This document shows, piece after piece, positions 4,327-42,474 of a DNA stretch of 42,474 nt. The DNA lies in the IMG/VR virus record IMGVR_UViG_3300030943_000055, one strand, 5' to 3'. Numbering within the stretch: the stretch's first letter is position 1; each line of letters starts with the position of its first letter. Source of the stretch: a virus. The translations under genes and the position numbers were made by a program. The notes under the pieces are model-generated. The model saw nothing but the letters and a program-made list of their open reading frames with translations. It searched no databases and was not told where the DNA came from.

Positions 4327-4962
4327 ATGGATTATAATCTTGCAGGACTCCGACAGCGTGTTAGGATTGACAAGCTGGATGATGAAGAGTTCGACTCTGG
4401 TGTTATCGACAATTTCATTAACGATACACAAAGAGACATTTTCAACGAGTATGAACTTCCCTTCCAAGAGAAGATATTCCAGGGTACAATTCCTGGCGGT
4501 TCTACTATGTTCCAATCCCCAACTGATTTGGCACAGCTACAGTCACAGACTATGGTTGATGTACCTGGATTTTCAAACTACAAAATGAAGTGGCGTGATT
4601 TCTTCCAGACTTATCCAGACAATGTAAACTCAACTCCTGGAGCACCAAGTTCTTGGACACTTTATGCGAATAACTTTATCTTTGATAAACCAACCGATAA
4701 AGATTATGTGTTTACAATGTTCTATATTAGAAAAGCTAAATTACTTGAAGGTGATACTGATGTACCTGAAGTGCCAGAAGACTTTGCTGAATTGCTAGTC
4801 CTTGGTGCATACATCCGTGTGCTTAAGCGTAACGAAGACTTTGACCAGGCTGCATTTGTACAGACTGACTATGATAGGTTACTTGACCTTCTTGTTGCTC
4901 GATATGGATTCCGTGAAGCAGATGGTGCAATTAAAATGAAGAATCAACAGATTAGGAGATAA
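4327..4962 (+). CDS. adaptor / tail tubular protein A-like (T7 gp11 position)
   Basis: A 211-aa ORF immediately precedes an 830-aa ORF, mirroring T7 gp11 (196 aa) and gp12 (794 aa). The call rests on synteny and size only. Confidence 0.4.
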   Translation: MDYNLAGLRQRVRIDKLDDEEFDSGVIDNFINDTQRDIFNEYELPFQEKIFQGTIPGGSTMFQSPTDLAQLQSQTMVDVPGFSNYKMKWRDFFQTYPDNVNSTPGAPSSWTLYANNFIFDKPTDKDYVFTMFYIRKAKLLEGDTDVPEVPEDFAELLVLGAYIRVLKRNEDFDQAAFVQTDYDRLLDLLVARYGFREADGAIKMKNQQIRR

Positions 4963-14543: not shown

Positions 14544-14678
14544 ATGAACGATTTACTACTCTACTGGTTTTTGTATGTAAGCACAGGTGCGATGATTGGT
14601 ACATTCCTCGGAACACTACTCGCATTTGGGTTTGCTGCATTGACTAAGAAACTAATCAAATGGTATAGGAGCTTATAA
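14544..14678 (+). CDS. 44-aa single-pass membrane protein (holin/antiholin-like)
   Basis: Below the ORF-track cutoff. RBS AAAGGAGA lies 9 nt upstream. Sequence MNDLLLYWFLYVSTGAMIGTFLGTLLAFGFAALTKKLIKWYRSL. Its stop overlaps the endolysin ATG (TAATG). Confidence 0.55.
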   Translation: MNDLLLYWFLYVSTGAMIGTFLGTLLAFGFAALTKKLIKWYRSL

Positions 14679-15751
14679 TGCTTAAAGGCATAGATATAAG
14701 CAAGTGGCAAAATACATCTGCCGTAGACCTCGGGCAAGACTTCGTAATAGTCAAAGCTACTGAGGGTGTCGGATATGTAGACCCTACTTGTGATACTAAA
14801 TACCAATACGCAAAATCAAAAGGCAAACTCCTGGGCATATACGACTTCGCTCGTCCTGACCTGGGTGGTGCTATCGCTGAAGCTGACTTCTTTGTAGATA
14901 ATACTGCAGGATATTGGCAAGCAAAAGAAGCTATTCTAGTACTTGACTGGGAAGCTGGTAACTTAGCTGACGTAAGCTGGGCTATCACTTGGCTACGAAG
15001 GGTTCGTGACCGCACTGGTGTGAAGCCACTTATCTATATGAGTGCATCTACACTTAGCCGTGCAAACTGGCAACCAGTAGTAAACGAAGATTTCGGTCTT
15101 TGGATTGCTGGATACCCTAACCGATACAATGTAACTAACCCACCTACTCCAGCTGAAGGCGAAATGCCTTACGATACGAGTCCTTGGGGATTCGCTGCAC
15201 TATGGCAATATACTAGTTCTGCTGGTACACTTGACCGTAACGTAGCTTACATGAGTCGTGAAGCATGGGGACGCTATGCTGGTGGTGGAACTCCCCCAGT
15301 ACAACCTCCTGCTCCTGTTATAACTACTAAGGATGAACAGACAGTTGATGTCTTGCCATTCACGGTGGTTCGTAACCCTGAATCAGACAAGCCTGTAGGA
15401 TGGGAACAGCAAGTACAATCTGGTACTGAAGGCTCTCACACTGTTATTACTCGTATTACATATACGGATGGCAATGAAACAGGACGTGAAGTTATCAGTG
15501 ATATAACTGTACAACCAGTAGATGAAGTGATTTACTTCGGAACACAGGAAGTCCCAACGACTGTTGAACCGCCTGTAACTGAACCTGAAGTTCCTACTGA
15601 AAATAATCCAAAACTTTCACAACCTACCAATGACACACTTATTGCTTTTAAAGCGTTTATTTTAACTCAAGTTACTAAACTTTGGGCTAATAAAGATAAA
15701 ATAATCGCATGGGTGAAGTCACTAATTAGTAAAATAACCAGAAAGAAATAA
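14678..15751 (+). CDS. endolysin: GH25 muramidase + G5-like domain + cationic amphipathic C-terminal helix
   Basis: GIDISKWQ...FVIVKATEG...GIYDFARP is the GH25 signature. VLPFTVVRNPESDKPVGWEQQVQSGTEGSHTVITRITYTDGNETGREV...VIYFGT is G5-like. The C-terminus reads FILTQVTKLWANKDKIIAWVKSLISKITRKK. Confidence 0.85.
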   Translation: MLKGIDISKWQNTSAVDLGQDFVIVKATEGVGYVDPTCDTKYQYAKSKGKLLGIYDFARPDLGGAIAEADFFVDNTAGYWQAKEAILVLDWEAGNLADVSWAITWLRRVRDRTGVKPLIYMSASTLSRANWQPVVNEDFGLWIAGYPNRYNVTNPPTPAEGEMPYDTSPWGFAALWQYTSSAGTLDRNVAYMSREAWGRYAGGGTPPVQPPAPVITTKDEQTVDVLPFTVVRNPESDKPVGWEQQVQSGTEGSHTVITRITYTDGNETGREVISDITVQPVDEVIYFGTQEVPTTVEPPVTEPEVPTENNPKLSQPTNDTLIAFKAFILTQVTKLWANKDKIIAWVKSLISKITRKK

Positions 15752-17500: not shown

Positions 17501-18415
17501 TTAGAAGTTTCCTTCAGCTACTTGGAAACACTTGAGACCAATTCTCCTCCACATATCTACTACACGGTTTCGGTCATCAAGTACAAACTTAACATTGAAT
17601 CGTGGTTCTACATGTGTGCGGAATAGTCGTTCTTTAACTATTGAATCTTCGAGTTGTTTACCTTTGTCATCAACATCACTGTTGAGTCGAGTGTAAAGCT
17701 CATCATATTCTACGTTGTTTGCTTTCAACCATTCTTCTGTAACTTCTCGGTGGTCTTCGTTACGTCCAGTAAGGATAATAACTTTGTAGCCGTGGTCATA
17801 CATCATAGCGGTGACTACTGATACTGCATCATCTAGTGAATCGTTCATAGCTCGGCTTGCGTCATAAGGACTGCGACCATCTGCGATGTGTGCTAGTGTG
17901 CCATCAATATCAACAATGATAGCTTCTTCTTTATTGTCATCATATGCGATAACTGCAGGCGGCGGTACTAAATACCTATCGTGCATAGCGTAGATTACCT
18001 TATCAGGTACTGGCTTGTCACGTAATTGGTTACGCCTAATGCATTCTTTAACAGATACATCAAAGAACTTCTCTTCGTAAAACGTTTCAAAAACTATTGC
18101 TAGATTCTTGAATGTCTCACTGTGTTTAGGGTCGAGGTTAGTATCATCTACTACCACGTTCTGACCCTGAGTCAATGCTCGGACGATAACATCATCACGG
18201 AGCTTCAGGACAAACTTCTCGTTATCCTTACTAAACTTACTATTGTGTAACATGGCACGTAAGTCATCTTTGTTCACACGAACCCACCCTTTATTCACCA
18301 GCTCCCTAGCGTATGTGGTCTTACCAGAACCTGGCAGACCTTTTAACACTAGTAGTGTAGGATGCATTTGTGCGACTTGTCGTTTAACCTTTTCAGGTTT
18401 GGTCGCTGTGTCCAT
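17501..18415 (-). CDS. polynucleotide 5'-kinase / 3'-phosphatase (T4 Pnkp-like)
   Basis: N-terminal P-loop LKGLPGSGKTTYAREL. C-terminal HAD motif IIVDIDGTLAH. Same domain order and size as T4 Pnkp. Confidence 0.85.
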   Translation of the reverse strand: MDTATKPEKVKRQVAQMHPTLLVLKGLPGSGKTTYARELVNKGWVRVNKDDLRAMLHNSKFSKDNEKFVLKLRDDVIVRALTQGQNVVVDDTNLDPKHSETFKNLAIVFETFYEEKFFDVSVKECIRRNQLRDKPVPDKVIYAMHDRYLVPPPAVIAYDDNKEEAIIVDIDGTLAHIADGRSPYDASRAMNDSLDDAVSVVTAMMYDHGYKVIILTGRNEDHREVTEEWLKANNVEYDELYTRLNSDVDDKGKQLEDSIVKERLFRTHVEPRFNVKFVLDDRNRVVDMWRRIGLKCFQVAEGNF

Positions 18416-19468: not shown

Positions 19469-19642
19469 TTACTCCTTTACTGATTCTACTTCGTAAACAC
19501 CAGTGTTAGTGTGACAAACATCGCCAACCTGGATTAGTGCTGCACCACGAGTAATGATACTCTCATGTGGCTGTCCGTCTACATCTCCATGTAAAATGGT
19601 TTCTGTGATGTATGCGTTACTGATTTTCTGTACTGATTCCAT
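19469..19642 (-). CDS. hypothetical small protein (57 aa)
   Basis: Below the track cutoff. Translated by hand: MESVQKISNAYITETILHGDVDGQPHESIITRGAALIQVGDVCHTNTGVYEVESVKE. Fills the gap between neighbouring genes exactly. Confidence 0.5.
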   Translation of the reverse strand: MESVQKISNAYITETILHGDVDGQPHESIITRGAALIQVGDVCHTNTGVYEVESVKE

Positions 19643-20540
19643 TGATTTTTCCTTCCAATAGTTGTTCTTTATACCACTGGGCTAACCCAAATGTGGCGTA
19701 CTTCATAATATCTGATTTATAGATACTATAAAGTTGTTCTTTGATATTCTCTTGCTCTTCAGTATCTAAGTCAACATAGACCTCCTTAAGTAACAAACCA
19801 ATATCTTTAGGTGTACCAGTCAACTCTCCATTGTCTCGGAGGTGCTGTACTGCCTTATTCCATCGAGCCTCTGTACGATAATTCTCTTTCAAGACATCGA
19901 ACTTACCCTTACCAGTGTTTAGCTTAGACCAATCTTTCTGGTGTACTTCCTTAAATGCCTCTGTGACATATTTACCAGACATAACCGATAACGGAATCTG
20001 TCCAAGGAATAACCAATTCTTGTATGCCTTTACTACAACACCTTCAATCTTTTGTCCACCGAGATAGCTAACTGTGTCTTCTACCATATCTAGTATCGCA
20101 CTCTGGCTAATCTCACCCCTGAACAATAACGGAACTGGGTCAACATCTAGTTTATCTGACCATTCCTTGATTGAATCGTAGTTAAGATACTCATGTGTCT
20201 CGCTAACATATACACCAAACATTGCGAAGAAGTTTTTAGGCGTTCTATCGTATGCTAGTGTCGAGTGGCGTGGAGTTCCCAGTGTTTCACCGTAGAACCA
20301 AATACCCTCTGGAAGCCTGTCTTCTATCGAATGCACATATTCCCATACTGGTCGGAATAGTTTATCTGGCTCTTCAAACTCACGTCCTTTTGAGCGAGTA
20401 ACAACTACTCCATCTATTTTACCAAATGAAAACTGTGAACCGTCAAGTTTCTCAGTAATCTCCACCTCACCTTCAAAAAGGTCAAGGATTTGTTTGTCCC
20501 CGATATGTAGAATCTTAGGGAAAGCTGCTGTTTTACTCAC
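19617..20540 (-). CDS. ATP-dependent RNA ligase (Rnl-type)
   Basis: Nucleotidyl-transferase motif I EITEKLDGSQFSF. 307 aa, with no obvious OB/DNA-ligase extension. GTG start with GAGGA RBS. Neighbours are Pnkp and a ligase-associated NTase. Confidence 0.7.
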   Translation of the reverse strand: MSKTAAFPKILHIGDKQILDLFEGEVEITEKLDGSQFSFGKIDGVVVTRSKGREFEEPDKLFRPVWEYVHSIEDRLPEGIWFYGETLGTPRHSTLAYDRTPKNFFAMFGVYVSETHEYLNYDSIKEWSDKLDVDPVPLLFRGEISQSAILDMVEDTVSYLGGQKIEGVVVKAYKNWLFLGQIPLSVMSGKYVTEAFKEVHQKDWSKLNTGKGKFDVLKENYRTEARWNKAVQHLRDNGELTGTPKDIGLLLKEVYVDLDTEEQENIKEQLYSIYKSDIMKYATFGLAQWYKEQLLEGKINGISTENQ

Positions 20541-21267
20541 TTAAATCCTCATACTTCCATTTATATTCCTGTAACTCTTCAGTGTATGCTCTGTAAATGA
20601 AATCTTCTATCCATTCAATGTCTGGTTTCCAGTCCATAACTGGGCTGATAGACTCTGCGGTTGCAACACGCCTGGACATTTCATCCATAGCTGCTACAAT
20701 TTCTGGTGTGAATGGTCGAATCTCTTCAAGCGTCATAGGCTTAATCTTCTTCAATAGAGGATAGATGTCAGCTTCTGCAATGTTGCATTTGAATTGACCA
20801 GTAAGTAAGAATTGTTCACATTGCCACATGACACGTAAGAATGCTACTGCGAACTTAGCTGTGCGTTGTTGACCAAGAACTCCTACGTCTTCAAAGTTGT
20901 AGAACTTGTTCCATTGATTGTGAGCATAACCTCTACTGGCTGCAACGAATCGTTTCGTATCAATAAACTTTTTCCAGTTGGCTCTAAGTTCAGCGTGTAT
21001 CGGAGTCGTTTCAATGATTTCGTCTGAAAAGAAGACTTCGAGGATTGTTGCGTTCCCATGTACCGCTTGCTTACAGAAATCTGCGAGTTCGTAACTCGTA
21101 TTGTCTTCATCACCCTCTATCCACGTAGTGTTCTTAAGAGTTTTGAAAGGACTAAGTTTATCCTGTAAGCTGTGTATATGTATGCCACGAAAATCGTAAT
21201 CACTAGTGCCCGTATTAAGCCCATGTAATCTACTCCCTACTAGTACTTTAGCTATTTGTGTTGTCAT
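20533..21267 (-). CDS. Pol-beta superfamily nucleotidyltransferase of the RNA-ligase-associated (RlaP-like) type
   Basis: N-terminus VLVGSRLHGLNTGTSDYDFRGIHI is the GS...D.D NTase signature. Overlaps the ligase gene by 8 nt. The family name is from memory and needs HMM confirmation. Confidence 0.6.
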   Translation of the reverse strand: MTTQIAKVLVGSRLHGLNTGTSDYDFRGIHIHSLQDKLSPFKTLKNTTWIEGDEDNTSYELADFCKQAVHGNATILEVFFSDEIIETTPIHAELRANWKKFIDTKRFVAASRGYAHNQWNKFYNFEDVGVLGQQRTAKFAVAFLRVMWQCEQFLLTGQFKCNIAEADIYPLLKKIKPMTLEEIRPFTPEIVAAMDEMSRRVATAESISPVMDWKPDIEWIEDFIYRAYTEELQEYKWKYEDLSE

Positions 21268-23683: not shown

Positions 23684-23874
23684 CTGCTAACCAATTCGCC
23701 TGAATGCAGTACGGTTCGTACCGAAACACCTGGTGATTAAATCCAGTACCATTAAGACAGGACACGAGAGTACTCGTATGGTTAAAGGATAATATACTAC
23801 GGAACTGTCATCAACAGCTCTACGGAAATCTCGTTTGGCTGACTTACGCCTGATTAGCATGTGTATTGTATTTA

Positions 23875-23968
23875 TGGCTGCGATGCCAGGTATCGAACCT
23901 GGGCATTATCGTGTACTTTGATAGTCAAGGTTTATTAGACCTCCGCTCTGCCGCTGAGCTACATCGCA
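23875..23968 (-). tRNA. tRNA, class-II-like (24-nt variable region), anticodon AAT (would read Ile AUU), CCA encoded
   Basis: Hand fold: acceptor TGCGATG/CATCGCA; D arm GCTC-AGCGGCA-GAGC; anticodon arm GAGGT-CTAATAA-ACCTT; variable region GACTATCAAAGTACACGATAATGC; T arm CCAGG-TTCGATA-CCTGG; then G-CCA. Confidence 0.75.
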
Positions 23969-24001: not shown

Positions 24002-24012
24002 AGTTCATCCAA

Positions 24013-24098
24013 AACGTAATCAGGGATTGAACCTGAAACATGCTCCTATATTTGTGCTCATACATGGAGCTGCGTTACCTTGCACACGCCTTTACGTC
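24013..24098 (-). tRNA. tRNA-like gene with a 19-nt anticodon loop (identity unresolved, no encoded CCA)
   Basis: Acceptor GACGTAA/TTACGTT (G1:U72); D arm GCGT-GTGCAAGGTA-ACGC; anticodon stem GCTCC/GGAGC enclosing ATGTATGAGCACAAATATA; variable loop ATGTT; T arm TCAGG-TTCAATC-CCTGA. Confidence 0.65.
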
Positions 24099-24105
24099 AT
24101 ATATT

Positions 24106-24187
24106 TGGTGGAGTATGAGAGAATCGAACTCTCGTCCCAAGGGTTTCCAACTCGTGGATTTACGCCTGGTCTAACCATTGATACCCC
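24106..24187 (-). ncRNA. tRNA-like domain (acceptor + T arm, alanine identity elements, non-canonical body), CCA encoded
   Basis: GGGGTAT/ATACTCC acceptor with G3:U70, then A73 and CCA. T arm GAGAG-TTCGATT-CTCTC preceded by GGAC. No 5-bp/7-nt anticodon hairpin can be drawn in the 47 nt between them. Confidence 0.55.
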
Positions 24188-24263
24188 AGAAAGGAGGACA
24201 GGGCTGAGGAGTGCGTGCCTCACTTGCGTCAACTACTCCATGTAGCCGAACCCATCTTCCTAT

Positions 24264-24370: not shown

Positions 24371-24993
24371 TTAATACCAGTTAACCGCATTGTGGTGCTG
24401 TAGGGCATTTGCCCAAGAGCCGTAACGTCCTATAACATAGGAGTTCATCCAGCGTATTTGACAAGCACCGTCTGCGTTTGGTGGCATTCCGCAACCAGAT
24501 TTGCCACAGGGTAATTCCTGGGCTACTCCACAAGCATTCGAGCCTCCAGTATTGTACAACTGAGGGTTACAAGAGCCGTTCTCACGTCTTTGTAATTCAA
24601 TAGCACTATTGAGTTCCGAACTGCTAACGACAGAAGCAAGCCAAGCCTGACAGTTACCACTGACTGCAACCTGAGTAGATACTCTAATGGTCTGCTGCCG
24701 TGCTGCCTCTAACTTTTCTTGCTTTAGTCTTTTAAAGCGGAGTTTTCCTGTTCTAGTTGTGTAATCTTCGCATCTTTTTCACTAACAGCTGTTGTCAACT
24801 GTTGTTTTTCCGTTTGCACGGTCTTCAGATTCGATTCGATTTTACTAGTCTCTTGCTGTGACTCCTGAAGGGATTGCTCCGCTTTTTGGATTGAGGCTGC
24901 ATGAGCAGTCTGCACAAACACATAAGCAACTAGAAGGACTGTAACAACTGCCAGGATAGCTGCTGTCTTAGACCATTTTACGATTGTACGAAT
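24371..24993 (-). CDS. secreted coiled-coil protein with a Cys-rich C-terminal domain ending RYGSWANALQHHNAVNWY; needs a -1 frameshift at 24730-24736 and probably an ATT start
   Basis: Two ORFs (24724-24921 and 24371-24559; the latter frame is open to 24778) join through a -1 shift. Upstream, in frame, lies a signal peptide KWSKTAAILAVVTVLLVAYVFVQTAHA/AS. It has no ATG/GTG/TTG; an ATT at 24993-24991 sits 5 nt after GAAAGGA. Confidence 0.55.
24730..24736 (-). other. candidate -1 programmed frameshift heptamer T_TTA_AAA
   Basis: Minus-sense gcT TTA AAA Gac TAA. The 0 frame stops 2 codons later. The -1 frame (TTT AAA AGA CTA AAG...) continues for 119 codons. Confidence 0.5.
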
Positions 24994-25102: not shown

Positions 25103-25157
25103 ATTATATCAAACTCGAGCCAAAAAGTCAAGGGCTTTTTACAATAAAGTGTTGTAG
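25103..25157 (-). promoter_or_regulatory. consensus promoter P1 with upstream CTACAACAC box
   Basis: Minus-sense CTACAACAC (25157-25149), 17 nt, TTGACT (25131-25126), 17 nt, TGaTATAAT (-10 at 25108-25103). Confidence 0.75.
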
Positions 25158-39428: not shown

Positions 39429-41365
39429 TGGCTAAGAAAAGCTATCAAGAAACGCCAAAACTTACAGAAGCTGATATGGGTAAAGACCCAGTATTAGTAT
39501 CTGTCATGGGCGACTTCAATAGTGCCAGAGGCTATGTAAAAGACAACTACCAATCAATTTGGGAAGATTGTTTTAAGGCTTACAATGCTATCCGCACAAG
39601 ACGAGGCTATTCAGGTGTCGCAGATGACTTCATTCCAGAAGTATTCTCTATCGTTGAATCACTCAAGGCTGCCATTGCTGGTAGCAAACCTAAGTTCAAG
39701 TACATGCCACTTGACGAGGAACAAGAACAAGATACTGAGGCGTTGAATGCACTAGTAGAATACTACTGGTCTTGCAATAACATGACAGAAAAGACGCTCA
39801 ACTGGGTAGGTGATATGATTATCTATGGCAATGGTATCTTCATGGTAAACTGGGATACGACTATGCCGTATATCTGCCACATACCACTGTCTGACTTCTT
39901 CGTAGACCCTACTGGTACTCACCTTAACCGTCCAGAGGAACGTGGTTACGCAAAGTTTGCTGGCTATCGTTACCTTACTAGTCTATCTCAGCTTAAAGCT
40001 AAGAAGATGTTTGATGTTAAAACTGGCGAGCTTGTATCTATGTACAAAAACCTCGACCAAGTTGATGGAAGTAAAGTAGCAGATGAATCTGATGATACTG
40101 ATAAGACTCGTAAGGAACAATTACTTGGTTCTACGCTAGGTAAAGATGCCGCTAATAAGCAAGTCGAAATCATTGAATACTACTCAGCTAAGAAAAAGAT
40201 TATCATTGCTAACCGTAGTGTTGTAATCTATGATGGTGAGAATCCGTTCCAACGTGCAGAAAAGAAAGTTACTGATATTATAGTCGTTAACGGTCAACCA
40301 CAGAAATCTACTCATACCATTCCTGGTATCCAAGGATTCCTACCGTTCGCCATCCTACGAAACTATACCGACTCTAACCTGTTCTATGCTCGTGGAGATG
40401 TTGAAGTTCTTATCCCTATGCAGGAAGCACTCAACGATACTAGTTCCCAGAAGCGAGACAACCTTGCTTATGCTCTTAACAACATGTGGCAAATCGACCC
40501 TCGGTTCAAACACCTTGCAGAGCAAATTGAATCAATGCCAGGTGCAGTGTTCCCAATTCCAAAGGGTGCTCTTACTCCGATTGATAAACAAGATGTCAGC
40601 CCAGCTGCAGACACAGAAATCTCACGACTCACTCAGGCTATGCGAACCGCAAGTGCTGCAGATGCTGCCGTACAAGGTGTATCACAGAAGTTCTCACGAA
40701 CAACTGCTACAGAGATTTCAGCACAGCTCAACCAAGCAAGCACACGATTCACAACTAAGATTCAAAACTTAGAAGATGAAGGATTTGCACAGCTTGCTCG
40801 TATTCTATACAAGTGTATCCAGATATTTGTTACCAAGGAGATTGCAGTACGCATCACTGGTAAGACTGGTACAAGTTGGAAAGACTACAACCCAGACCGC
40901 TACACTGGTGAATACCAACCTCGAGTTATCCTAGAAGCAACAGCACACGCTGAAGCGTCACAGATGGCACAGGCGGTACAGGTAGCAGCACAATTCGGTA
41001 TGAATAACCCATTGGTTAACCAAGAAGTTCTATTGCGTAAAATCTTTACCAGTATCTTCCCAGATTCTCCAAAGGATGACATAGATGAATTGCTTACTCC
41101 TCCAGCTCCTCCAGTAATGGGTGGTGATGGTCAGGCAGTAGACCCATCGTTAACACAGAATCCTAACACTCAGGTTATGCCTGGAGGTGCAGATGCTATT
41201 ATTAACGGAACAGGTGCTCCAATGGGTGCAACCGCTCGGGGCAAAGCCACACAAAGTGGTTCGCAAGGTGGTGGAGGTGCAGGTACGTCAGTTGGAAACA
41301 ACCCACGTCCTCGTGCATCGCAACCAAGCACAACACTACAAACTAGGGTAACACCAGGAAAGTAA
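39428..41365 (+). CDS. portal protein (645 aa) with a G/Q/P-rich C-terminal tail
   Basis: Start overlaps the terL stop. Size and position fit a portal. The disordered C-terminus resembles the tails of podovirus portals. Confidence 0.75.
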   Translation: MAKKSYQETPKLTEADMGKDPVLVSVMGDFNSARGYVKDNYQSIWEDCFKAYNAIRTRRGYSGVADDFIPEVFSIVESLKAAIAGSKPKFKYMPLDEEQEQDTEALNALVEYYWSCNNMTEKTLNWVGDMIIYGNGIFMVNWDTTMPYICHIPLSDFFVDPTGTHLNRPEERGYAKFAGYRYLTSLSQLKAKKMFDVKTGELVSMYKNLDQVDGSKVADESDDTDKTRKEQLLGSTLGKDAANKQVEIIEYYSAKKKIIIANRSVVIYDGENPFQRAEKKVTDIIVVNGQPQKSTHTIPGIQGFLPFAILRNYTDSNLFYARGDVEVLIPMQEALNDTSSQKRDNLAYALNNMWQIDPRFKHLAEQIESMPGAVFPIPKGALTPIDKQDVSPAADTEISRLTQAMRTASAADAAVQGVSQKFSRTTATEISAQLNQASTRFTTKIQNLEDEGFAQLARILYKCIQIFVTKEIAVRITGKTGTSWKDYNPDRYTGEYQPRVILEATAHAEASQMAQAVQVAAQFGMNNPLVNQEVLLRKIFTSIFPDSPKDDIDELLTPPAPPVMGGDGQAVDPSLTQNPNTQVMPGGADAIINGTGAPMGATARGKATQSGSQGGGGAGTSVGNNPRPRASQPSTTLQTRVTPGK

Positions 41366-41366
41366 T

Positions 41367-41687
41367 ATGAAACAAGTTGAAGCAAAAGATGTAACGAAAA
41401 TAGAAGGTCTCTCCAAAGCTAATGCGGAGAGGGAGAAGTCCATTGCACGTCAATGGGCTACCTTCTCCAAAACAGATGCGTATGCAGATTTAATGCAATA
41501 TGGGCACTCTACAAGCGAGATGCTCAGTACCTACGCAAAGGAAATGGTAATGCCTTCTCCAGTAGGAGACGGTGAACAAATAATAATTGATGGTGAGAAG
41601 TCGCTTTCTCTCTTGCAAAATGCTAGAGGATGTGATATAATACTATCGTACGTTGAGGAATATGTTTCTTCAGCTACAAATAAATAG
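41367..41687 (+). CDS. hypothetical head-module protein (106 aa)
   Basis: ORF with AGGAAAG RBS, between the portal and scaffold genes. Confidence 0.55.
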   Translation: MKQVEAKDVTKIEGLSKANAEREKSIARQWATFSKTDAYADLMQYGHSTSEMLSTYAKEMVMPSPVGDGEQIIIDGEKSLSLLQNARGCDIILSYVEEYVSSATNK

Positions 41688-41707
41688 AATACAAAGGAGT
41701 ATCCTAA

Positions 41708-42474
41708 ATGAATGAAACCACTACTGGTCAAGTAGTAGATACGTCAGCTGCCGACAACTCGAGTACAGCTAACCCTACAAATCTTCCAGCGGATTCGCAA
41801 GTAAATGGAAACGAGGACGCAAGTTCTCAGGCAACGTCTACCGCATCTGCTGAACAAAATCAATCAACAGAAGCCGATGACAATGCTGCTCTCGCAAGTT
41901 TCGCAAAAGGTCAGGGTATCACCGACCTTGCTGAATTATCAGCTCGTGAAATAAGCCTTCTTAAAATGGCTCGAGACAATAAGTCTGCATTTGATAAAAC
42001 AAGGAATAACCAACCAAAACTTGACGAAACGTCTAAAAACTTGGCAACCCTTGGTGACGATGCAACTGATGTCCAAAAGCTCACCGCTAAAGTAGCAAAC
42101 ATGGAGTTCGCTACCACGAAGACTAATTTCTTCACTGGCAAAGATGCAGCACTAGAACCAGTAATGGCTCAAATTGTTGCTGATAAGCGTTCTCAATTTG
42201 GTGACGACTATGCTCGTTCCTTATTGCAAGATTTGCCTACATTATATGGTCTAGCACAACTACAAAAGCCTGCTGATACCAGTGCTGCTGCACAAGCTGC
42301 TAGAGAAGAAGAGCGTAATTCTATGAATCAGAGTTTAGCTGCTTCAGGTGCTGACGCACATGCAACTAATTCTCGACCTGCAACTCCTGTAAAAGTCACT
42401 AATGCCTGGATTGAAAATGAGTATGACTCAACAAACCCAGAACACCGTGCGTTACTTGATGCTGCTCTCAAACG
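41708..42474 (+). CDS. scaffolding protein, 5' part (runs off the window and ends at nt 131; 298 codons including the stop)
   Basis: Not in the ORF track because no stop falls inside the window. AAGGAG RBS precedes ATG 41708. The sequence is acidic, A/Q/S-rich and helical (MNETTTGQVVDTSAADNS...), and the gene sits directly before the capsid gene. Confidence 0.7.
   Translation, partial: MNETTTGQVVDTSAADNSSTANPTNLPADSQVNGNEDASSQATSTASAEQNQSTEADDNAALASFAKGQGITDLAELSAREISLLKMARDNKSAFDKTRNNQPKLDETSKNLATLGDDATDVQKLTAKVANMEFATTKTNFFTGKDAALEPVMAQIVADKRSQFGDDYARSLLQDLPTLYGLAQLQKPADTSAAAQAAREEERNSMNQSLAASGADAHATNSRPATPVKVTNAWIENEYDSTNPEHRALLDAALK
42348..42474. repeat. second copy of the 127-nt terminal overlap
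   Basis: Identical to nt 1-127. Confidence 0.95.

Follow-up and report, generated by a model that had tools for sequence, protein, structure and literature searches.

A candidate phage-encoded tmRNA reduced to an alanine-type tRNA-like domain

Introduction

What kind of RNA carries the two ends of an alanine tRNA with no anticodon arm between them? The question is raised by a virus sequence of 42,474 nucleotides (IMG/VR record IMGVR_UViG_3300030943_000055, hereafter the window, by which we mean the whole stretch of DNA analysed), where positions 24106–24187 of the minus strand hold an 82-nt element. A first, sequence-only reading had described it as a tRNA-like domain (TLD) recalling that of transfer-messenger RNA (tmRNA), had suggested a role as a decoy or in ribosome rescue, and had kept a degenerate tRNA-Ala as its fallback. 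Covariance models and an alignment of homologues show the predicted RNA to be a conserved, structured TLD of the tmRNA type, with alanine identity and without a template. The reading that we favour, with a probability of about 0.6 and on sequence evidence, is that the element is a phage-encoded, TLD-only tmRNA derivative that would compete with the host tmRNA, trans-translation and its tagging being thereby blocked or bypassed.

A tmRNA match without the messenger part

The Rfam tmRNA model RF00023 aligned to the element globally, over model positions 1–374, with 43.1 bits (E = 3.5e-15 in a 3-kb search). In this alignment 15 nt replace the approximately 306 positions of the body, i.e., the mRNA-like region and the pseudoknots. 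The element matches the consensus at GGGG, UGG, GAC, GGAC, GUUCGAUUC and CUCCACCA, and its UGGUUA-GAC and GGAC are placed by Rfam on the tmRNA consensus, so that the resemblance noted at first (GGGG at the 5' end, GGAC before the T stem) is measurable. The score is under the gathering cut-off of the model (47 bits); among the relatives described below, those in loci L004 (51.5 bits) and L003 (50.5) are above it and those in L002 (42.7) and L005 (36.3) below. At gathering thresholds the sole Rfam match in the window is a neighbouring tRNA at 23878–23968. A second covariance model, R1, built solely from the family of the window, gave 99.4 bits on the element.

No mRNA-like domain (resume codon, tag reading frame or stop codon) was found in the element, as had been read at the outset, nor were the pseudoknots PK1–PK4 found in this 82-nt RNA, whose body is a single hairpin. 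With the resume codon, the tag frame with its stop and the four pseudoknots all missing, the element would be unable to perform the mRNA half of trans-translation. In the remaining features it follows bacterial tmRNA: a 7-bp acceptor stem with G3:U70, A73-CCA, an unpaired D-loop analogue of the type GG...GAC, a GGAC that precedes the T stem, the T arm, and a P2 helix emerging at the site of the anticodon arm.

A tRNA gene was not recovered at this position. ARAGORN under default settings called neither a tRNA nor a tmRNA at the element, and Rfam reported no tRNA match there at E ≤ 10 (two lower-scoring overlaps of the same clan were removed by clan competition), in agreement with the claim that no anticodon hairpin is present. 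The alpha, beta and cyanobacterial tmRNA models were not reported by Rfam at the element either. A canonical tRNA-Ala cloverleaf, which would have gone against the sequence-only reading, can be ruled out, ARAGORN being silent by default and the best Rfam family for the stretch being tmRNA. In common with tRNA-Ala the element has the identity elements of the acceptor, a T arm and a CCA end, but it has no D stem, anticodon arm or anticodon, and a conserved P2 hairpin that covaries makes up its body. When ARAGORN was run with forced, low-threshold or intron-allowing settings, the calls were in conflict with each other (Ser; Gly with a 48-nt 'intron'). At the 80% threshold only, it proposed a permuted tmRNA with the tag ALQHHNAVNWY*; we rejected this candidate, as the 'tag' is the C-terminus of a 62-aa open reading frame (ORF) at 24371–24559, located in a stretch that is 81% identical to L004 over 352 nt. 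A tmRNA in two pieces, of the circularly permuted form, is ruled out as well, both acceptor strands being contiguous in one unit.

Structure of the element

Read from 5' to 3' on the minus strand, the element begins with the acceptor strand GGGGUAU (G1–U7, 24181–24187), followed by the unpaired D-loop analogue CAAUGGUUAGA (24170–24180), whose GG and GA(C) match the tmRNA consensus UGGaUUCGAC in the Rfam alignment. Then comes the 5' strand of the P2 closing helix, CCAGG (24165–24169), identified by covariation and paired with CUUGG at 24137–24141, the latter supported by the pair test on 12 copies and by RNAalifold. Enclosed by this helix are the A-rich internal loop CGUAAA (24159–24164), unchanged in 12 of 12 copies and facing AACC (24142–24145), and the apical hairpin UCCA-CGAGU-UGGA (24146–24158) that caps the shortened P2 and in which 10 copies have A:U at pair 33:39 and two have G:C. 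The linker GAC (24134–24136) stands ahead of the T stem and, together with the G at 24137, forms the tmRNA-type GGAC (24137–24134) that Rfam aligns to the consensus GGAC. The T arm GAGAG-UUCGAUU-CUCUC (24117–24133; GAGAG at 24133–24129, TTCGATT at 24128–24122 and CTCTC at 24121–24117) has double compensatory changes in three of its five stem pairs. The element is closed by the acceptor 3' strand AUACUCC (24110–24116, with U70 at 24112), the discriminator A73 (24109) and an encoded CCA (24108–24106). The two acceptor strands, the discriminator and the CCA were read directly from the sequence.

The acceptor stem thus formed has 7 bp, G3:U70 included, its 5' strand is separated from the T stem by 47 nt, and its two strands are contiguous within a single hairpin-closed unit of 82 nt in which one capped helix occupies the position of the anticodon arm. 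All the coordinates and counts of the first description (acceptor pairing, G3:U70, A-CCA, T arm, GGAC and the 47 nt) are correct on the minus strand, and the CCAGG/CTTGG helix that it proposed closes, and covaries in relatives (CCAGC/GTTGG).

Conservation in the phage family

Relatives were fetched from IMG/VR contigs through the protein encoded next to the element, an exonuclease subunit, and an element of 81–82 nt was present in L002–L005. Scanning IMG/VR and the JGI metagenomes for the invariant core GACCAGSCGTAAATCC raised the total to 12 distinct copies, on which the family results given here are based. The exact 3' end of the element had no match in IMG/VR. When an explicit four-helix structure was imposed on the 12-sequence alignment, 99.6% of the cells held standard pairs, versus 35–59% with the partners slid; double-sided changes were found in 9 of the 20 pairs and across all four helices, and the covariation score was matched by none of 500 shuffles. 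RNAalifold independently gave the same structure plus the pairs 19:51, 25:45 and 26:44. In P2, for example, pair 23:47 is G:C in seven copies and C:G in four. The mean column identity of the copies was 86%, with compensatory changes, i.e., these are not recent transfers of identical sequence.

The pattern of change along the element is also informative. In the acceptor, 1:72 and 2:71 never change, 10 of the 12 copies have G:U at 3:70, and pairs 4–7 covary. In the same number of copies the set G1, G2, G3, U70, C71, C72, A73 and CCA does not vary at all, so the free variation of the acceptor and its G:U pair that would have spoken against an alanine-type TLD was not seen. In the D-loop analogue G12/G13, G17 and A18 are invariant or nearly so; in the linker A53 and C54 are invariant and column 52 is G or C. 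The unvarying motifs of the body are GAC, CGUAAAUCC and GGAA(A/G)CC, and this non-tRNA body is the most conserved part of the element.

These data bear on the simplest alternative, that we are looking at a functionless relic, either a pseudogene of tRNA-Ala or a remnant of a host ssrA gene of the attP type. The T arm and CTCCACCA do resemble the 3' end of any tmRNA, and the 3' ends of tmRNA genes are common integration sites of phages, according to the discussion of the Melnitz paper. However, an attP fragment would hold the 3' portion only, and here both acceptor strands are present and covarying, with the non-tRNA body as the best conserved part, which also excludes the degenerate tRNA-Ala that had been the fallback. 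Besides, no integrase was found among the 30 ORFs of the window scanned with Pfam, and the core GACCAGSCGTAAATCC was not found in 185,579 representative bacterial and archaeal genomes (GTDB species), so that the element would not have been copied from any host ssrA or prophage sampled there. We consider a relic very improbable.

The two copies without G3:U70 and ACCA, among the 12 primary ones, are the first copies of L001 and L048, which end in CATTCCC-T-CTT, with G3:C70 and no CCA. In both loci R1 detected a second, divergent and intact element about 200 nt downstream (GGGGCTA...TAGCTCC-A-CCA), at 4734–4814 in L001, followed by an ORF for an HNH endonuclease and then by an orphan 3' end, CATTTCCACCA. 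In L001 (4531–5230; L048 is alike, on the reverse strand) the first copy is broken after ...CTCACCATT by an insertion of about 610 bp. The intact second copy, the HNH ORF and the orphan 3' end indicate that the first copy was split by a cassette of about 610 bp carrying its own mini-tmRNA, and the insertion looks like a homing cassette aimed at the mini-tmRNA gene. No Rfam intron model matched the insertion of L001 or L048. By this account one copy of the predicted alanine type is retained in every phage of the family.

The upstream strand and a longer form

Another possibility raised at the outset was a longer RNA of 134 nt, in which GGAGTAG (24239–24233) would replace GGGGTAT as the 5' strand of the acceptor stem. 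The strand exists and pairs with the acceptor 3' strand at six of seven positions, and when the 134-nt stretch was folded in isolation the structure of minimum energy did use it, with a z-score of only -0.23. Nevertheless, about two such 7-mers are expected by chance per 154 upstream positions, and none of 11 relatives has a counterpart at a consistent position: there is either no match or matches at scattered offsets. G1 is immediately adjoined by a tRNA gene in L002, L004, L038 and L045. The leader of L048 is homologous to that of the window; its GGAGT is unable to pair with the acceptor 3' strand of that copy and finds a local partner, ACTCC, downstream. The exchange would also convert G3:U70 into A:U, destroying the alanine identity. 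The strand is therefore real as a sequence, but its use in an alternative form stays at the level of chance and is not conserved; we rejected it on these comparative grounds and give it hardly any credence. The 'Gly with 48-nt intron' obtained with ARAGORN -i employs the same upstream strand and was dropped for the same reasons.

DS6A and other reduced tmRNAs

There is a precedent for this kind of molecule. Hudson, Lau and Williams (2014) list 'Mycobacterium phage DS6A (TLD only)', and this was the sole phage TLD-only tmRNA named in the literature that we covered, where such elements are not described as a class. We located the DS6A element at 28478–28560 of JN698994. It measures 83 nt (82 in the window), scores 43.2 bits with the Rfam tmRNA model (43.1 in the window) and is matched over its full length by R1 with 64.9 bits (E = 1e-14). 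Both phage-borne elements have a GGGG acceptor, G3:U70, A73, a D-loop analogue CAAUGGU...GAC, a 5-bp P2, a 4-bp capped hairpin, a G(C/G)AC linker (GCAC in DS6A) and the T loop UUCGAUU; DS6A also has CUCCACUA. The 5' internal loop is A-rich in both, ACGAAA in DS6A and CGUAAA in the window, whereas the primary sequences of P2 and of the hairpin are unrelated. The phages themselves are different, DS6A being a temperate actinophage of 69% GC with an integrase and the window a podovirus-like sequence of 41% GC. The DS6A element is isolated, upstream of a DNA polymerase III gene, and has CUA in place of an encoded CCA, while that of the window encodes CCA and is located inside a tRNA cluster. The window family is, from these comparisons, a putative DS6A-type TLD-only tmRNA: the kind was already known and the family is new. 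The decoy or rescue-related role suggested initially agrees with the published view of the DS6A precedent.

Similar reductions have been described in organelles. The tmRNAs without a coding sequence of jakobid-type mitochondria and of Mallomonadaceae plastids (the latter of about 65 bp) consist of the tRNA-like part only, with no tag frame, and the authors of PMC11915505 argue that they still help with incomplete mRNAs, a targeted SmpB co-occurring with them. The likeness is by description only, and these are cellular or organellar genes with their own translation system and a dedicated SmpB; in our case a virus supplies the RNA and must rely on the SmpB of the host. Phages can also encode full-length ssrA homologues (the mycobacteriophage Bxz1 group, Bacillus phage G, and the two-piece forms of Melnitz and pelagimyophages), which shows that phages manipulate trans-translation. 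Those RNAs keep the tag frame and the pseudoknots and can complete the process, which the element of the window cannot do.

Distribution among uncultured phages

IMG/VR was scanned with three generic patterns, and canonical tRNA-Ala genes were taken out with ARAGORN. Since the first two patterns forced GGGG...CTCCAC, the search was repeated with a third one that fixed only the D-loop, GGAC and the T loop and left the acceptor free. Together the scans recovered at least 204 elements, at least 157 of them distinct, in at least 203 loci, the own family of the window included, which could be sorted by shared body 8-mers into at least about 81 sequence lineages. R1 matched at least about 22 of them over their full length with 33–68 bits in a first set, and at least 49 more at E ≤ 1e-5 in a second. 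The mini-tmRNAs in the class loci (L056–L376, e.g., L072, L076, L107, L140, L150, L224 and L236) measure 77–88 nt. Among the matches listed, the local GC content goes from 34% to 70% and an internal-loop motif (G/A)UAAA(N)CC is visible class-wide.

The structure of the class was judged from folds of single sequences and from a model-based alignment (A4). Most elements, folded singly, give the same layout. With 46 distinct sequences aligned to the model, 95% of the cells pair, versus 46–54% with partners slid, and double changes appear in 18 of 23 pairs, including all five of P2, figures that come from a model-fitted alignment biased towards the structure. The data suggest that hundreds of uncultured phages may share the TLD-only design.

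The acceptor-free sample bears on charging. It contains 91 distinct elements among the matches listed, all with at least six of the seven acceptor pairs. A73 and G1:C72 were present in 91/91, G3:U70 in 90/91 and G2:C71 in 89/91, while the neighbouring pair 4:69 was G:C in 60, C:G in 17, U:A in 5, A:U in 5 and G:U in 3, and pairs 5–7 were free to vary. CCA was encoded in 21/91. An identity set that is kept beside neighbours that drift is the apparent signature of selection on the set recognized by alanyl-tRNA synthetase (AlaRS).

A recurrent gene order was also visible among the matches listed: portal (12 lineages), a gene of the head-maturation-protease type, the mini-tmRNA and the major head protein. 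In 16 lineages the protease-type gene is on the same strand, about 230 nt upstream of the mini-tmRNA, and in 10 the major head protein follows about 120 nt downstream of it. In such loci, e.g., L329, L358, L235 and L224, the mini-tmRNA often has an HNH endonuclease or a terminase as its neighbour.

Proposed function

A tmRNA derivative of this kind would keep the acceptor stem, the D-loop analogue, the T arm and the base of P2, with everything distal to P2 reduced to a short capped hairpin. We envisage four steps. The RNA would be co-transcribed with the neighbouring tRNA genes and matured as a tRNA is. Host AlaRS would then charge it with alanine through G3:U70, A73 and G1-G2:C71-C72, as their strong conservation suggests. 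Next it may bind host SmpB and EF-Tu and enter ribosomes stalled with an empty A site, rivalling the host tmRNA, a step to which the retained tmRNA-type GAC/GGAC and elbow nucleotides point, together with published work on TLD-only constructs. With no template to switch to, no degradation tag would be added, and the outcome would be either release of the ribosome without a tag or its trapping. During infection the net effect would be that host trans-translation and tagging are blocked or bypassed. Regarding the constructs, PMC3895274 cites peptidyl transfer in vitro to a TLD-only truncated tmRNA (Shimizu and Ueda, 2006) and states that kirromycin blocks transfer to this molecule, unlike the case of full-length tmRNA. 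We infer a dependence on the SmpB of the host: none was found in the window, either with Pfam on the 30 ORFs or with phmmer and three SmpB queries, whose top match, a protein with HIRAN and exonuclease domains (E = 0.35), was not significant.

A simpler mechanism would be a pure sponge, the RNA sequestering host SmpB and so turning trans-translation off with no need for charging or ribosome entry. The conserved tmRNA-type D-loop analogue and GAC/GGAC junction are what such a sponge would need, and the work of Mao et al. (2009), as summarised by Hudson et al. (2014), goes in its favour. But a sponge has no use for AlaRS identity, and G3:U70, A73, G1:C72 and G2:C71 are kept in 89–91 of the 91 listed elements although the neighbouring pairs drift; in the family, G3:U70 is lost only where a second, intact copy is present. 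This near-perfect conservation argues that charging matters, and hence that action on the ribosome would be part of the function, rather than just SmpB titration. We regard a pure sponge as rather unlikely.

Several points weigh against competition with host tmRNA by a charged TLD. The four steps are all inferred by us. Inhibition of E. coli tmRNA by a TLD-only molecule of the DS6A type is reported (Mao et al., 2009, RNA Biol 6:355, as cited in two other papers), reportedly irrespective of whether the molecule can be charged; a simple SmpB sponge would account for this, with the strong conservation of alanine identity explained only indirectly. The element is dispensable in the wider phage group, being absent from MW202692 and from the more distant L006–L009. 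Finally, the folding energy of the element is unremarkable (z = -0.9), thermodynamic stability being uninformative here; the fold supported by covariation is within 0.3 kcal/mol of the minimum free energy.

Genomic context

The window belongs to a tailed phage, with genes for the large terminase, an SU10/P22-like portal, an SU10-type adaptor and a capsid protein, besides a Dda/Pif1 helicase, the exonuclease subunit of a DNA polymerase, endonuclease I and an HNH endonuclease. An endolysin with a GH25 muramidase and a G5 domain, assigned with Pfam (14678–15751, plus strand), hints at a Gram positive host. The closest record is the uncultured freshwater podovirus MW202692, with 41% identity in the portal, and no nucleotide match was found in the GenBank phages with a 1.1-kb ('distant') or a 20-kb ('near') search.

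A few kb from the element, on the minus strand, there is a set of RNA-repair genes, the polynucleotide kinase/phosphatase Pnkp (17501–18415), an RNA ligase (19617–20540) and the nucleotidyltransferase RlaP (20533–21267), a module that is syntenic across the family of the window. This vicinity, and the location in a tRNA cluster, would suit a tRNA-shaped element acting outside trans-translation, either as a 'punctuation' site for RNases P and Z or as a decoy or substrate for defence nucleases that target tRNA or tmRNA, with the repair genes as partners. DS6A encodes an RtcB-like ligase, tmRNA is the most frequent repair target of RtcB according to a report cited in PMC11090510, and the position of mini-tmRNAs in other lineages, within operons and between head protease and major capsid genes, is one where RNA processing would matter. 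Such a role leaves unexplained the tmRNA-only features (GAC/GGAC, P2 and the lack of an anticodon arm) as well as the alanine identity set. A class-wide link to repair genes had to be rejected: Pnkp, Rnl and RlaP were not found in the 3–15 kb loci of 17 unrelated mini-tmRNAs, and MW202692 has the same module (39573–42072) with no tRNAs and no mini-tmRNA. We judge this alternative improbable. No function can be assigned from the genomic context.

The element lies in a non-coding stretch beside two other tRNA-type genes and on the same strand as the flanking genes. The tRNA cluster is variable within the family, the mini-tmRNA being its constant member. One neighbour (23875–23968, minus strand; ARAGORN, and Rfam tRNA with 54 bits) reads AAU (Ile) as its anticodon, and its 21-nt variable arm contains a UAUC/GAUA stem. 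The second, 8 nt downstream of the element (24012–24098, minus strand), was called 'Thr(UGU)' by ARAGORN at the 80% threshold only and had no Rfam tRNA match at E ≤ 10; it is non-canonical, having A33, a D stem of 3 bp, a T stem of 4 bp and a variable arm that is long. Bacterial tRNAs for Ile and Thr would not be expected to carry such arms. Among the family loci both genes are conserved in L052 only, a locus identical to the window (100%) throughout the RNA cluster and probably of the same phage. In L004 an Rfam tRNA match of 136 nt (4718–4853, plus strand, 38.9 bits) adjoins the mini-tmRNA, with no ARAGORN call, which implies a putative tRNA gene with an insertion of about 60 nt, either intronic or forming a very extended arm.

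A sigma-70-like promoter is predicted at 25103–25131 (minus strand; TTGACT-17-TATAAT with TG), on the strand of the RNA cluster and upstream both of it and of a 65-aa ORF; 11 of 12 consensus positions are present, and this is a consensus match only. A conserved pyrimidine motif, C(Y)CCTTTCT, directly adjoins the first RNA gene of the cluster on its 5' side (24188–24197, minus strand) and is found at the equivalent position in L003, L005, L027, L048, L040 and L045; it resembles the end of 16S rRNA that holds the anti-Shine-Dalgarno (CCUCCUUUCU). Both the window and L048 have, ahead of it, a Shine-Dalgarno sequence and a mini-ORF of 7–8 codons (MGSATWSS* and MGSLTRS*). Just downstream of the cluster (about 23793–23869, minus strand) a 75-nt stretch, AATCAGGCGTAAGTCAGCCAAACGAGATTTCCGTAGAGCTGTTGATGACAGTTCCGTAG, is 90–97% identical in all the family loci, more conserved than the flanking proteins (66–88% amino-acid identity). 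It has a 7-bp hairpin between CCGTAG repeats and has CAGGCGTAA(A/G)TC in common with the internal loop of the mini-tmRNA. The stretch is probably non-coding, since the ATG of an overlapping 57-aa ORF is not conserved.

Implications

Trans-translation is the main ribosome-rescue pathway of bacteria and a target of antibiotics, and to our knowledge little is known about how phages handle it. What is new here is a well-supported family of 12 distinct copies, and a design that is apparently common and selected for alanylation. It makes a clear biochemical prediction, involving AlaRS, SmpB, EF-Tu and a stalled ribosome, and an RNA of 80 nt could be used as a small natural tool with which to inhibit or probe trans-translation. 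More tentatively, and with the odds rather against it, the mini-tmRNAs might form a large and essentially undescribed class of phage counter-measures against host ribosome rescue, present in hundreds of unrelated phages, often built into the operon of the head genes just upstream of the gene for the major capsid protein, and swapped by HNH homing cassettes in the family of the window, in which an alanine-charged, SmpB-dependent RNA would take over stalled ribosomes with no tag being added. If this is true, the nascent proteins of the phage would be shielded from ssrA-directed proteolysis, or translation would be restored after the action of host abortive-infection toxins that cleave mRNA.

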